Source: an uncultured Alphaproteobacteria bacterium (GTDB taxonomy: Bacteria > Pseudomonadota > Alphaproteobacteria > RF32 > CAG-239). From it: 64,000 bases of DNA. The notes under the pieces are model-generated. The model worked only from the letters and a program-made list of their open reading frames with translations, did no database searches and was not told the origin of the DNA. Where the stretch lies: contig CALXTN010000001.1 of assembly GCA_944391405.1 (NCBI GenBank), forward strand, positions 4,503 to 68,502, in the 5' to 3' direction. The position numbers and the translations under genes are program-made. Below, piece by piece: positions 48,447 to 58,441 of this stretch (position 1 is the first letter of the stretch; each line of letters starts with the position of its first letter).

Positions 48447-50519
48447 ATGTTTGATATCAAAAATATTACAGAAACGGAAGCAACCCAACAATTAGAGTTT
48501 TTAGCCAAAGAAATTGAAAAGGCAGATATTGCTTATTATCAAAATGATGAACCTTATTTGGATGATGCATCTTATGATAAATTACGTCGTTTAAATGATG
48601 CGTTAGAAGCAAAATTTCCTCATCTTATTCGTGCGGATAGTCCTTCTAAACGCGTAGGAGCCCTTGTTAAAAGTGAGTTTAAAAAGGTTGAACTTAAAGT
48701 TCCGATGCTTTCTCTTGCTGACATTTTTTCTTCTGAAGAATTAAAGGACTTTATTCAGGGAGTTAAACGCTTTTTAAACAGTACCGATGATATTGTTTTT
48801 ACTTCTGAACCCAAAATGGATGGTCTGTCCTTTTCCGCTTTATATATTAATGGTATTTTTTCAAGAGGTTCTACTCGTGGCGATGGGAAAATTGGAGAAG
48901 ACATTACTGAAAATCTCAAAGTTATAAAAAACTTTCCTCTCTATCTGGAAAAGGACGTTCCAGAGCGTTTTGAAGTGCGTGGTGAAGTTTTTATGTCTAA
49001 AGCAGACTTTCTTGCTCTTAATACTAAAAACGAAACTGAGCATAAAAAAACTTTTGCGAATCCTAGAAATGCTGCTGCAGGTTCTCTTCGTCAATTAGAT
49101 GCTAGAATTACGCAAGAAAGAAATTTAAGTTTCATTGTCTATACCTGGGGAGAAGTTTCTGATATTTGCTGGAGTAGTCAAGAGGAATTTCTTAACTATG
49201 TTGCTTCATTAGGATTTCCTGTAAATCCATACAACAAAATTTGCCGCAATGATAAAGAATTGATGGATAGTTTTGATAGTCTGATGATACAACGCTCTTC
49301 TTTGCCTTACGATATTGATGGTATCGTTTATAAAGTTAATGACTTGGAATTACAGAATCGACTCGGTTTTTTAACAAGGACTCCTCGTTGGGCTATTGCT
49401 CATAAATTTCCTGCAGAACAGGCTATTACTCGTTTGAATAATATTCGTGTTCAAGTCGGCAGAACCGGTGCTTTGACTCCTGTTGCCGATTTGGAACCAA
49501 TTAATGTTGGTGGCGTTTTGGTTTCTCATGCAACCCTTCATAATGAAGATGAAATCAAACGCAAAGATATTCGTGTGGGCGATATGGTCGTTATTCAACG
49601 TGCGGGTGATGTCATTCCGCAAGTGGTTTCTGTTTTGAAAGATAAAAGAACCACGCCTTTACCAGAGTTTCAATTTCCTCATTTTTGTCCTGAATGCGGT
49701 GCACACGCTATTCGCGAGGAAGATGAAGCGGTTCGCCGTTGTACCGCTGGACTTTCTTGTCCGGCACAGGCTGTAGAGCGTCTGAAACATTTTGTTTCGC
49801 GTGAAGCTTTCAATATTGAAGGCTTGGGCGATAAAGTTATTGAGGATTTTTATAGAGAAGGAATTATCAAAACACCCTTTGATATTTTTACATTAGAACA
49901 AAGAAATCAACCTGCGGATTTATTTTCTTCAGCATCATCTCTTGAGTTAGAAAAACGCGAAGGTTGGGGTACAAAGTCCGTTAAGAAGTTATTTGAGGCG
50001 ATTGAAAAAAGTAAAAATATCAGTTTGCAGAAATTTATTTACGCCTTAGGTATTCGGCAAGTTGGCGCCGCAACTGCTTATTTGATTGCTCGGCACTATC
50101 ACTCTTTTGATAGCTTTATGAGTGCGATGATTCAAAAAGATTTGCAACTGCTTATCAGTATTGACGGTGTTGGTCCGGCTATGGCAAAAGATATTGTTGA
50201 ATTTTTTAATGAAGAGCACAACATTTTTATTATTCGAGAATTGCTCAAAGTCGTTCATATTGAAGATTTTAAAGGAATCGAAAATACAAATTCAGAAATC
50301 TTTGGAAAAACAGTTGTCTTTACAGGTACATTAACCTCTTTAACAAGAAATGAGGCTAAAAGTAAAGCTCTTGCTTTTGGGGCTAAAGTTGCTGGTTCTG
50401 TTTCTGCAAATACTGATTTTGTTGTTGCAGGAGAAAATGCCGGTTCTAAGCTGTCAAAAGCTCAAGAGCTTGGGATTAAGATTATTTCAGAGGACGACTT
50501 TATAAAGATTATTTCTTAA
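48447..50519 (+). CDS. ligA: NAD-dependent DNA ligase LigA
   Basis: Adenylation motif [11 protein letters not shown] fold, Zn finger CPECG...C...C, HhH and C-terminal BRCT ([10 protein letters not shown]). The ORF could start at 48438. Confidence 0.95.
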
Positions 50520-51325
50520 AGATTATTGTCAGTTGCTGCTTTTGGAGTGCGTTTGCGCTTATAGAATACCTTATATATGTTAATAAACATAACATTGAAG
50601 AATATTGCCAATACTGAAATGACATATATTTTGATATGCACACCAAATGCAATATCTATTGCATGAGATATCATGCATAGACCACTCATAAACACACCAC
50701 AACTTACAAAATTCCAATAATTTCCTTGTGTCTTTTTATACGCATCAAAGATTGATCGACTTTTTCCAATTATTGATGATAGCCATGCAAGATATGGACG
50801 ACTTATGGTATATGGAGATAAGAGCAGCATTAAAATATAAAATAAAGTTTTCCCTAAAAGAGAATCGTGACTTTGCAGAATTTCCATATAATTCTCAAAA
50901 AATTCTAAATACTTATCTCTAAATCCCATAAAAAGCGGAATATATGGCGCTACCACCAATACCAAATAAATGCTAATGTTGATAAACATTATCTTGCTGG
51001 CCGGTATCAATCCATTAAAAATTCGTATCAGTGAAAAATACGGCGGATGCTGTTGAATATGGCGAATAAATATGCACCAATAAACATAATACCCAACAAG
51101 CCATAAAATACTTAAAGAGTTTGTCCAACCGTTCGGAATTAAAGAGAAGATATAGAGAAAAGCAAAATTTACCAACGACCAGAGGAGAAATGTCCTCTTA
51201 TAGAGCAGTACAAATTTCGCACTGCTCTTAATTGAGGACAATAGAGAAAAATTCTTTATCTCTGTTGTGAAAGATTTACGCTTCGTCTTCTTCAAATCCT
51301 TCCTCTTCTTCTGCGTTAGGATCAT
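50516..51325 (-). CDS. Hypothetical polytopic membrane protein (5-6 TM), last gene of the T4CP operon
   Basis: Hydrophobic segments run throughout. The ATG at 51325 overlaps the T4CP 3' end by 50 nt and has no clear SD. A TTG at 51241 is an alternative start. Confidence 0.5.
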
Positions 51326-57069: not shown

Positions 57070-58137
57070 TTAAACTTTTAATTTTTTAATAAATTCACCA
57101 ATTTTTTGATTTGCTTTTATACCATCTTCAGGTGTAACTTTTATTAAACCGAAAAATTTCGGATGAATTTTATCAAATTCGATAGGCGAAAACATTGCTG
57201 GATTCTTAGTTAGAGCCTTATACGCACCATCTGCATCTTTTTGCGCTGCCTTAAAGTAATTTCCTATTAATTTTTCTGCATTTATTGGAAAATTCTTTTC
57301 TTTTAATTTTTGGATAAATAAAGATCTTCTTTCTTGCAGCTCCATATATTCGTCATAGAGTTCTTTTTTTATTCTATTTTTTTGGATAATTTCTCGTTTT
57401 TGTTCATAGCTAACTTCACATATTTCCATATTTATCAAAATCTCAACATATGAAATTATAGCTAATTGCATATCTGTATCTGTCAAACTTTCTGCAAAAT
57501 TAAGAAACTCCTCATCTCCTGCATCCTTTGATAGCCTTTTCATATTTTCTGGATCGTATTTATTAATTATATCCCAACAATCTAATAAGTATTTTGCTAT
57601 CTTTTTGCCAACACTTGGCTTATAGTTTGGATATAGCATATTTTCTGTATACTCTGTTTCTGGAGCCTTTAAATTCTTTTTTTCTGCTAAAGAAATTACT
57701 CCATCACGAAAATTTGTAACAGCTCGTGCTAACTCCCGCTCTTCATCCTTTAAGTTTATTTTATCTTCAAACTCATTTTGTTTTTTTTCTACAGATGTTG
57801 TTTGTATATTTGCCAACTCAGATAAATTGTTAATCACTTCTATTTGATTCGAAGATGTTAATTGGTTATTTGATTGTAATATTTGTGGTTCTGAAGAAAC
57901 TAAATTTTCTTTTGCTTGTTCTGATGATGTAATAAAACTCTCTAGCCCTCCTTCTGGTTGTGATAAAAATCCATCCAGTGTTTCTTCTTGAGGTTCACCC
58001 CCTTCTTTTCTATCTTGATTTATAAAATCATTTAATAATTTAGCAAATTCATCTTCAATTTTTGTGTTTGTTGTTTCTTCTTTTTTTTCTGTGTTTTGTG
58101 TTAAAAAATCATCTAATGACTCTATATTATTGTTCAT
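57070..58137 (-). CDS. Hypothetical 355-aa acidic protein with repeated L-[DE]-x-F-[LI]-[TS] motifs
   Basis: GGGGTG SD. N-terminal motifs SLDDFLTQ, LLNDFINQ, TLDGFLSQ and GLESFITS. No family recognised. Confidence 0.6.
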   Translation of the reverse strand: MNNNIESLDDFLTQNTEKKEETTNTKIEDEFAKLLNDFINQDRKEGGEPQEETLDGFLSQPEGGLESFITSSEQAKENLVSSEPQILQSNNQLTSSNQIEVINNLSELANIQTTSVEKKQNEFEDKINLKDEERELARAVTNFRDGVISLAEKKNLKAPETEYTENMLYPNYKPSVGKKIAKYLLDCWDIINKYDPENMKRLSKDAGDEEFLNFAESLTDTDMQLAIISYVEILINMEICEVSYEQKREIIQKNRIKKELYDEYMELQERRSLFIQKLKEKNFPINAEKLIGNYFKAAQKDADGAYKALTKNPAMFSPIEFDKIHPKFFGLIKVTPEDGIKANQKIGEFIKKLKV

Positions 58138-58441
58138 TTTTCACCCCTTTGTCTCCTTTAATTAAGCGAATAGTTATTACTTCTTTTGCTTGTTTTTCAT
58201 CAATTATTTTTATTTTATCAATTCTTGGTGTCGTCGTCAAAATATAAATTTTTTCATCATTTACTAAAAATTGTTTGATTTTTTCTTTTTTTTCTAAATA
58301 AACATTTACTTCTTTTTGAAGGGGCTGCCCAGAATTGCTTGTAGTTTTGGTAAGTATTTTTGCAATTATTAAATATGTACATAAAATGATACTTATACTT
58401 AATAGCATTACAATACTTTTTAGTACATTTTGTTTTGTCAT
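58127..58441 (-). CDS. Hypothetical small membrane-anchored protein (104 aa), first gene of the T4CP operon
   Basis: AAGGA SD and a single N-terminal TM segment (IVMLLSISIILCTYLIIAKIL). It overlaps the next gene by 11 nt. Confidence 0.55.
   Translation of the reverse strand: MTKQNVLKSIVMLLSISIILCTYLIIAKILTKTTSNSGQPLQKEVNVYLEKKEKIKQFLVNDEKIYILTTTPRIDKIKIIDEKQAKEVITIRLIKGDKGVKNEQ

Follow-up and report, generated by a model that had tools for sequence, protein, structure and literature searches.

Type IV secretion systems (T4SSs) admit their substrates through coupling proteins, and to our knowledge almost nothing has been learned about the accessory proteins that act on these gatekeepers outside the Legionella Dot/Icm system. 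The 64-kb stretch of DNA analysed here (from contig CALXTN010000001.1 of an uncultured alphaproteobacterium; hereafter 'the window') encodes such a protein, a VirD4-family type IV coupling ATPase (T4CP), in a block of seven co-directional minus-strand open reading frames (ORFs) at positions 50516–58441. Across related genomes the T4CP gene keeps one chromosomal position, beside rluD and rpoH, and is passed on vertically; it follows directly upon a gene for a membrane-anchored protein with a nuclease-like domain. The block is best filed as a T4CP-centred complex, matching no described system in the libraries searched, and the reading that we prefer, with a probability of roughly 45%, is that it forms a new coupling complex—a substrate-receptor platform—feeding a type IV channel encoded elsewhere. 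Two things speak for this reading: the motor closely resembles homologues that are virB-linked, and in relatives an effector-like gene pair lies beside it.

The T4CP is the sole recognised product of the block. Searches of Pfam, NCBIfam, PADLOC and PHROGs gave no significant match for any of its six partners, which are named here by their length in residues. A public gene call made independently, on a 129-kb contig with the same sequence, gives products of 104, 355, 535, 163, 436, 739 and 269 aa, and its annotation records a Pfam match for none of the six partners. The genes of the block and those that flank it are as follows.

58127–58441, minus strand: p104 (ORF and hydropathy)
57070–58137, minus strand: p355 (ORF)
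55382–56989, minus strand: p535 (ORF)
54880–55371, minus strand: p163 (ORF)
53517–54827, minus strand: p436 (ORF)
51276–53501, minus strand, as ORF from GTG, likely 51276–53495 from ATG: T4CP (ORF and homologue alignment)
50516–51325, minus strand: p269 (ORF and hydropathy)
48438–50519, plus strand: ligA, convergent with the block
58520–59509, plus strand: rluD, divergent from the block
59635–60510, plus strand: rpoH, divergent from the block

The compact layout described in the initial annotation was borne out by the ORF listing, by the public gene call and by the gaps between successive genes, which from p104 to p269 are −11, 80, 10, 52, 21 and −50 nt. So were its ribosome-binding signals: Shine-Dalgarno sequences of GGAG/AGGAG type precede six of the seven genes (p269 being the exception), that of p163 lies within the end of p535 and overlaps its stop, and the T4CP gene possesses its own at a spacing of 21 nt from p436. 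The bounds given there, convergent ligA and divergent rluD, agree with both the ORF listing and the public annotation, and the ATG at 53495 that it favoured as T4CP start is likelier than the GTG, because homologues align from residue 3. Counts of promoter and terminator consensus sequences in the block were at the level of shuffled sequence and hence uninformative, and no internal intrinsic terminator stands out.

A conserved core at a fixed chromosomal site

A T4CP relative was detected in 404 genomes when one genome per species was scanned. Identity and synteny were analysed in the best 80 loci of that scan, all with at least 69% T4CP identity, and synteny was assessed in the 79 loci with a callable T4CP gene, wherever the contig extends far enough. 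A five-gene core, consisting of p355, a hypervariable slot, p163, p436 and the T4CP, was syntenic in 79/79 loci, the shared order being rpoH and rluD (divergent), then genes for products of ~300–430 aa, a variable 430–770 aa, ~163 aa and 404–510 aa, and then the T4CP. The seven-gene unit proposed in the initial annotation is thus upheld as regards gene order, but the conserved unit is one of five genes, p104 and p269 being present in only part of the clade; the co-occurrence of block and T4CP in related genomes, which it had put forward as a check, is conserved in all 79 loci. Amino acid identities were as follows.

T4CP: 69–99% across loci
RpoH: 59–96% across loci
RluD: 56–85% across loci
LigA (where syntenic): 68–95%
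p436: 35–92%
p163: 23–86%
p355, C-terminal domain: 39–54% in the distant group

The T4CP is therefore about as conserved as RpoH, and its identity range, set against those of RpoH and RluD, is the behaviour of a core gene under strong purifying selection. No T4CP relative was found on IMG/VR viral contigs. Homologues at 71–94% identity came from gut and rumen metagenome-assembled genomes (MAGs) deposited under names such as 'uncultured Alphaproteobacteria', 'Azospirillum sp. CAG:260', 'Acetobacter sp. 46_36' and 'Candidatus Scatocola', all of which we take to belong to the GTDB order RF32. A search of metagenomes starting from p436 brought up 180 relatives, and those contig labels that name a source name human gut. 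The block is accordingly a core gene set, with a conservation around that of RpoH, in an uncultured lineage that is widespread in the guts of humans, ruminants and birds, and it probably serves something central to the life of these small-genome bacteria.

These data bear directly on one alternative, that the block is an accidental juxtaposition of genes, or else a decaying leftover of some T4SS or mobile element since lost. Its partners are indeed lineage-restricted 'hypothetical' proteins, as such an origin would have it. However, all motifs are intact, there are no frameshifts, T4CP identity is 69–99% and the T4CP is paired with p436 in 146/146 loci; synteny in 79/79 loci means that the block is not an accidental juxtaposition, and we regard this alternative as effectively refuted.

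A VirD4-type motor outside the virB operon

Taken as the 741-aa product from the GTG, the T4CP scored 182 bits against PF02534, 80.3 against PF12696 and 62.7 against PF10412 (cut-offs 20.1, 22 and 20.5, respectively). Its topology is canonical, with transmembrane (TM) helices at ~20–47 and 90–117 followed by a cytoplasmic nucleotide-binding domain (NBD) and an all-alpha domain, and its motifs are intact (Walker A APPGTGKT, DPKPE, Walker B LDEFPQMP and GQDLGQ), so that the identification made in the initial annotation is secure. The 'unusual' PPGTGKT P-loop remarked on there, on the other hand, is nothing of the kind: APPGTGKT and LDEFPQMP do not vary within the clade and recur in VirB-linked relatives, and since all relatives, virB-linked ones included, possess the P-loop and the other motifs, these are traits of the subfamily. 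Scores against NCBIfam equivalogs lay below the cut-offs (conju_CD1115, 144.5 bits, cut-off 250; VirD4 PRK13897, 124.6 bits, cut-off 728), and in a PDB sequence search the T4CP profile had no match and the single sequence matched only TrwB (E 0.4). These weak scores mark the T4CP as a divergent member of its family, and nothing further.

An exhaustive HMMER search of cluster representatives yielded full-length relatives beyond the clade at 33–54% identity. Those most informative for its origin are listed with their identity to the window T4CP and their gene context.

P0366: 46%; virB4...virB8-virB9-x-virB10-virB11-virD4
P0368: 44%; 534-kb chromosomal contig, virB10-virB11-virD4, with virB4, virB8, virB9 and a secretin nearby
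Sphingosinicella and Microvirga plasmids: 32–35%; virB8-9-10-11-D4
P0511 (locus L082): 53%; solo, housekeeping context
P0362 (locus L081), from a 'Rickettsiales bacterium' MAG: 51%; solo, housekeeping context
P0365 (locus L090): 54%; solo, housekeeping context

In a rough neighbour-joining (NJ) tree the window clade groups with the three solo relatives, and the virB-linked ones come next. Because the nearest T4SS-linked relatives (44–46%) sit in virB10-virB11-virD4 operons, the simplest reading of these sequences is that the T4CP would be a VirD4 that left the virB operon. With the VirD4 of alphaproteobacterial P-type (rvh-like) T4SSs it has in common PF02534, PF10412 and PF12696, the layout of two TM helices, NBD and all-alpha domain, and identical APPGTGKT, DPKPE, LDEFPQMP and GQDLGQ motifs, at 44–46% identity to chromosomal and 32–35% to plasmid-borne members. 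It differs from them in lying outside a virB operon, with five unrelated genes in the upstream slot, in scoring far below the NCBIfam cut-offs (125 vs 728 bits), and in being a core chromosomal gene whose C-terminal tail is acidic-aromatic (net charge −13) and specific to the clade.

Some loci of relatives have features of their own. In one chromosomal virB cluster, with a T4CP at 44% identity, a secretin-family gene (PF00263; L094:13410–14741) lies between virB9 and the T4CP gene, an uncommon arrangement in P-type T4SSs. In two sister lineages the solo T4CP gene has neighbours that encode small proteins with a type IV pilin-like N-terminus (G-x-S-M-x-E, then a hydrophobic helix; L082:13437–13880 and 13941–14279; L081:9503–9958), and in one case such a gene lies immediately upstream of the T4CP. 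A separate group of solo chromosomal T4CPs, 34–41% identical to that of the window, is preceded by a pentapeptide-repeat protein of 330–441 aa, close-set or with overlapping start, in housekeeping surroundings without virB genes (L083:8772–13042, L084:9006–12193, L085:8971–13069, L086:1064–5162 and L087:8672–12226). Pentapeptide-repeat proteins can mimic DNA, and we know of no description of their pairing with a T4CP. As it is separate and more distant on the rough NJ tree, this group was not used to interpret the block.

A nuclease-like partner paired with the T4CP

In each of the 146 loci with room downstream, a p436-like gene was followed by the T4CP gene. The pair is also present in locus L082, where a p436 orthologue (hmmsearch E 8e-60) lies directly upstream of the solo T4CP and has kept a near-invariant stretch described below, although p163, p535, p355 and p104 are missing. 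On the strength of the 146/146 pairing and of the pair alone in L082, p436 and T4CP are the ancestral core, and the clade acquired the other partners later. Loci of an intermediate group contain a gene resembling p355 and another that resembles p163 but is longer.

p436 is composed of a 2-TM anchor (residues 1–100), a disordered linker of ~170 residues, in which a KKKS motif and a FNFDDDDFDLDFDF acidic-aromatic motif are conserved, and a globular C-terminal domain. A strongly basic stretch follows TM2 and, by the positive-inside rule, all that lies beyond it would be cytoplasmic. Two features of the C-terminal domain are referred to below.

53520–54011, minus strand: NERD or PD-(D/E)xK-like domain, residues 273–436 (Pfam in homologues, AlphaFold2, Foldseek)
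53793–53879, minus strand: near-invariant stretch, residues 317–345 (GDWLADEExFNxEEPLWFSExSHRISPVR)

The initial annotation had guessed that the 436-aa protein was NERD-like, and its homologues lend weight to the guess: Pfam NERD (PF08378) matched 7/45 of them at E ≤ 0.01 (best 3.4e-5), and one database homologue has a precomputed PF08378 match, the window protein itself having none. AlphaFold2 modelled the C-terminal domain with a pLDDT of 80–92, in an alpha-beta-beta-beta-alpha-beta order of secondary structure that fits. PD-(D/E)xK nucleases head the list of PDB matches found by Foldseek and make up most of its top 20, with AF1548, NucS/EndoMS, Nt.BspD6I, R2 RLE, Card1, MspJI and FokI among the top matches; the best E-value was 0.0095, none was significant, and TM-scores were low because the full-length model served as query. 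No DotM, VirB or other Dot/Icm protein occurred in the list.

An acidic triad is conserved almost throughout the clade (D298 in 77/79 sequences, D313 and E315 each in 78/79). The resulting D..D-K-E motif places a Glu at the position of the canonical catalytic Lys, with K314 between D313 and E315. D..(D/E)xE is the BamHI-type variant of PD-(D/E)xK, and the p436 pattern is compatible with BamHI-like variants, any nuclease activity being putative. In the stretch at 317–345 most columns are identical in 79/79 sequences, even where whole-protein identity is ~35–40%; positions 325, 328, 337 and 341 vary, and a few others show one or two substitutions. Residues 327–337 were modelled as a low-confidence loop (pLDDT <50). 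A loop that is conserved yet modelled as unstructured suggests a candidate interaction, substrate-contact or active-site element, and the 29-residue stretch and the D..DxE triad offer precise mutational targets.

Likeness to the NERD family comprises the weak PF08378 matches in 7/45 homologues, the modelled alpha-beta-beta-beta-alpha-beta core and the conserved acidic residues on strands 2 and 3. Against this, the window p436 lies below every Pfam threshold, has D..D-K-E instead of D..ExK, carries the near-invariant 29 residues as an insert or loop, and is joined to a 2-TM module of which p163 is a separate paralogue. The other comparison is with MOB_C modules (the CloDF13 T4CP MobB with MobC; TraX of pAD1), in which the relaxase is a PD-(D/E)xK-type enzyme. 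There the T4CP is encoded beside a DNA-processing protein of restriction-endonuclease fold; here it is strictly paired with the PD-(D/E)xK-like p436. The block, however, is chromosomal, vertically inherited and non-mobile; p436 is anchored by two TM helices and has no likeness to plasmid-encoded proteins, its nuclease-like domain having found no match on plasmids; no relaxase family matched in Pfam and NCBIfam scans of the block proteins; and no oriT is known, none having been sought.

The other partner proteins

Of the six partners, four are membrane proteins; the periplasmic loops of p436 and p163, like those of the T4CP, contain conserved residues. p163, present in every locus with room for it, is a 2-TM protein of 159–179 aa (TM helices 3–35 and 60–83) with a short charged cytoplasmic tail and no PDB match. 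It is paralogous to the membrane module of p436 (hhalign against p436 residues 1–110, probability 98.7%, E 1.9e-16), in keeping with the kinship of the two 2-TM proteins suggested in the initial annotation. In the intermediate group, which is higher in GC (44–58%), a protein of ~370–390 aa encoded upstream of the p436-like gene matches the 2-TM profile of p163, of which it is a longer paralogue with an extra, uncharacterised C-terminal part (L107:8842–9957, L112:8786–9919 and L123:8785–9948).

p355 and p535 are acidic, lack a signal peptide and are cytoplasmic in character. The N-region of p355 (residues 1–128) is acidic and disordered, with a net charge of −17 and three LDxF[LI][TS] motifs, and its C-domain (residues ~129–355) is all-helical, with an AlphaFold2 pLDDT of ~90 for 130–280. 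The protein is conserved in 71 loci, and in the far group it is the C-domain that is retained (39–54% identity, vs 5–16% for the N-region). No sequence match was found in Pfam or PDB and no fold match in PDB or BFVD (best Foldseek E 0.44 and 0.14); 615/615 homologues are unnamed or 'hypothetical protein'. The acidic-aromatic repeats in the window p355 are LDDFLT, LDGFLS and LESFIT (residues 8–13, 54–59 and 65–70; window 57990–58116), p436 possesses DDDDFDLDFDF at residues 187–200 (window 54228–54269), and the C-terminus of the T4CP carries a similar short acidic-aromatic motif. All three proteins might use such motifs to dock on one shared receptor. In p355, the LDxFLT repeats are restricted to nearer relatives.

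p535 occupies the hypervariable slot, a position that is always filled by a gene for 427–771 aa, with identity down to ~10%. Its acidic, S/T-rich N-terminus (net charge −17) is followed by a moderately conserved hydrophobic segment at ~150–180 and a long, K/E-rich, helical and coiled-coil-like C-terminal part, and a Pfam search with 32 orthologues gave a single sub-threshold coiled-coil match. p104, the first gene product of the block, is a basic protein of 104 aa (pI 9.7) with one N-terminal TM helix (~4–32) and a small C-terminal domain, and a gene of ~100 aa occurs at its position in only part of the clade. p269 is a polytopic, basic membrane protein (pI 9.9), without a match in Pfam or PDB, whose start overlaps the 3′ end of the T4CP gene by 50 nt. 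Its identity is 54–93% in nearer relatives and 31–41% in a few distant ones, and its slot is the variable 3′ end of the operon, holding in other members HNH-like and SUKH-like genes, or something else. Counts for this slot are approximate, and a class with p269, HNH and SUKH together is an artefact, because the p269 set and hidden Markov model (HMM), assembled by position, were contaminated with HNH-type proteins of ~200 aa from distant loci.

Might these partners themselves make up a divergent secretion module? Under such a scheme some of p104, p355, p535, p163 and p269 would replace parts of VirB6, VirB8 or VirB10 type, and the whole would be self-contained. The genes do lie at the exact position of virB8–virB11 in relatives, and four encode membrane proteins, one of them polytopic like VirB6. 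However, p355 and p535 are acidic and cytoplasmic, without signal peptides; much of the clade does without p104 and p269; and the partner HMMs match nothing in the loci of T4SS-linked relatives, nor were there fold matches. We therefore hold the replacement of VirB parts to be quite improbable. A minimal envelope-spanning route with the T4CP as its only ATPase, the other part of the scheme, is just as hard to credit, there being no VirB4-type ATPase and no outer-membrane or periplasm-spanning protein predicted.

Candidate toxin–immunity genes beside the T4CP in relatives

Lineages resembling L082, the intermediate group and some members of the main clade have two further genes immediately after that of the T4CP, one for an HNH-motif protein and one for a SUKH-like protein (for example L027:12243–13284, L082:12265–13334 and L107:13527–15014). 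The HNH-motif protein, of 200–350 aa, has an invariant N-x3-H-x3-P-x4-G-x5-N-x9-H-x3-H and no Pfam match; the SUKH-like protein, of ~150 aa, matched SUKH/SMI1_KNR4 in 12/20 members (best E 1.6e-5). L082-like loci also encode a ribbon-helix-helix protein (RHH_4) just upstream. An HNH nuclease with SUKH is a classic toxin–immunity pairing, and to judge by their motifs the genes beside the T4CP look like such a pair, which makes them a testable cargo hypothesis.

In the bacteria-killing T4SS of Xanthomonadales type, VirD4 recruits toxic effectors that have cognate immunity proteins. The position of the HNH-motif and SUKH/SMI1_KNR4-like genes directly after the T4CP in relatives recalls that system, and polymorphic toxins in general. 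There are differences, in that the window holds p269 at this place, the HNH assignment is at the level of the motif only, the pair keeps its position and is not polymorphic, and no XVIPCD-type domain is known in it.

Nucleases beside an ATPase could also point to conflict or defence, a reading raised in the initial annotation. The T4CP, as an ATPase of the FtsK/HerA superfamily, would act with one or more nucleases to destroy incoming phage or conjugative DNA, and in relatives SUKH would restrain the HNH nuclease. The ATPase-plus-nuclease architecture, the HNH and SUKH genes of relatives, the variable 3′ slot and the hypervariable p535 would all suit such a role. Inheritance tells a different story, however: defence systems are typically patchy, mobile and fast-evolving, whereas the T4CP is as conserved as RpoH, its position is fixed by rluD and rpoH in 79/79 loci, a relative is present in 404 species genomes, and the neighbourhood is one of housekeeping genes, not a defence island. 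PADLOC gave only mad8 for the T4CP (E 0.0055) and a coiled-coil JetC match for p355, neither of them meaningful. Vertical, uniform inheritance under strong purifying selection in a housekeeping neighbourhood thus disfavours this reading, which we consider unlikely.

Proposed function and its alternatives

Profile and structure searches of the neighbours against canonical T4SS components, proposed in the initial annotation, matched no neighbour. As DotM, DotN or VirB proteins the partners were searched for in Pfam, NCBIfam, PADLOC and PHROGs, in Pfam with ortholog alignments, and with PDB profiles, all without a match; for p436 and p355, AlphaFold2 models and Foldseek returned no T4SS protein. 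Homologues of DotM/IcmP, DotN/IcmJ, IcmS, IcmW and LvgA were likewise not found beside the T4CP (Pfam, NCBIfam, PDB, and Foldseek of p436 and p355). HMMs of the six partners matched nothing in the loci of T4SS-linked and pentapeptide-linked relatives, and the partners are therefore not hidden in canonical T4SS loci. Searches of the libraries and of the literature (T4SS in RF32/CAG-239, NERD with coupling protein, VirD4 with SUKH/HNH) brought up no described system that accounts for the block.

If the block is a coupling platform, it would be a lineage-specific inner-membrane assembly built around a VirD4-type ATPase outside its ancestral virB8-virB11-virD4 operon. p436, p163, p104 and, where present, p269 would pack around the TM ring of the T4CP, and the nuclease-like domain of p436, together with soluble p355 and p535, would dock on the ATPase as a substrate-receptor or adaptor layer, analogous in function, but not homologous, to DotM/DotN/IcmSW/LvgA on DotL. 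The motor would then hand a macromolecular substrate, which might be one or more nuclease-type effector proteins and/or DNA processed by p436, to a putative type IV channel encoded elsewhere in the genome. That there is a multi-subunit membrane complex is plausible, because of the four membrane proteins among the partners and the conserved residues in periplasmic loops noted above.

The closest conceptual parallel is the type IVB secretion system (T4BSS) of Legionella and Coxiella, with DotL, DotM, DotN, IcmS/IcmW, LvgA and DotY/Z. Its T4CP is encoded apart from the channel genes, the TM partner lies directly upstream (dotM-dotL), and small or acidic adaptors select substrates. Going by this general knowledge of the system, the block shares with it the concept of a T4CP with an upstream TM partner and acidic partners. 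The components are nevertheless different: the partners lack likeness in sequence or fold to DotM, DotN, IcmS, IcmW and LvgA, the window T4CP is of VirD4 rather than DotL type, and its upstream partner has a nuclease-like fold. A VirD4-type motor with an obligate nuclease-like partner, and with further proteins that fall into no known family, would be a second kind of coupling complex, unrelated to the first.

Several results weigh against a coupling platform. No VirB, Trb, Dot or relaxase gene was found in the 64-kb window, where ten large ORFs outside the block were scanned, and none within ±10 kb in ~170 related loci; the initial annotation's orphan without VirB, Trb or Dot partners holds good locally, for these regions. 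None of the partners resembles a known T4CP adaptor in sequence searches or in Foldseek searches with the p436 and p355 models, and we know of no adaptor type that is a membrane-tethered nuclease fold. Moreover, the HNH/SUKH pair is not in the window, where p269 fills the slot, and the sole PDB match of the HNH-motif protein, the pyocin AP41 DNase, was aligned on the HNH motif at a non-significant E of 0.39.

The main rival, less likely but with a substantial chance of being right, is a machine independent of any T4SS. An FtsK-like hexamer of the T4CP and the membrane-tethered p436 nuclease would then process and pump DNA at the inner membrane without a VirB channel; DNA release or uptake and the handling of chromosomal or extrachromosomal DNA are possible roles, with p436 relaxase-like or strand-processing. 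It is a similarly tentative proposition that no VirB channel exists at all and that VirD4 was domesticated, with p436 and new accessories, for DNA or nuclease cargo, as a new class of T4CP apparatus. Such a machine, were this less favoured idea to hold, would be categorically new and, if the genomes are without a T4SS channel, the first VirD4 motor recruited to a channel-independent job. The strict pairing of T4CP with a nuclease-like fold in 146/146 loci, the near-invariant D298..D313-x-E315 triad, the DNA theme in relatives (RHH_4 upstream, HNH-motif downstream), the empty surroundings of all ~170 loci as regards T4SS genes, and the MOB_C precedent of PD-(D/E)xK relaxases paired with a T4CP are all consistent with it. 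Set against these are the want of any precedent for a lone VirD4-type T4CP in a diderm, with the outer-membrane route left unexplained, the Glu that replaces the canonical catalytic Lys, the sub-threshold fold and Pfam matches of p436 and its lack of a plasmid match; nor did an oriT-like element turn up, no search having been aimed at one.

Neighbouring genes

Beyond the window on one side, the same genome contains only RND efflux and housekeeping genes. Within the window, a topA-dprA-plsY cluster lies at 20408–24633 (minus strand); DprA, the DNA-processing protein of natural transformation, is thus present in this small genome, and it may bear on the T4CP module if the module handles DNA, although DprA is widespread. 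Closer to the block, between infC and ligA, an ORF of 286 aa at 47342–48202 (minus strand) has no Pfam match and is found at the same position, with 62–92% identity, in nearer relatives.

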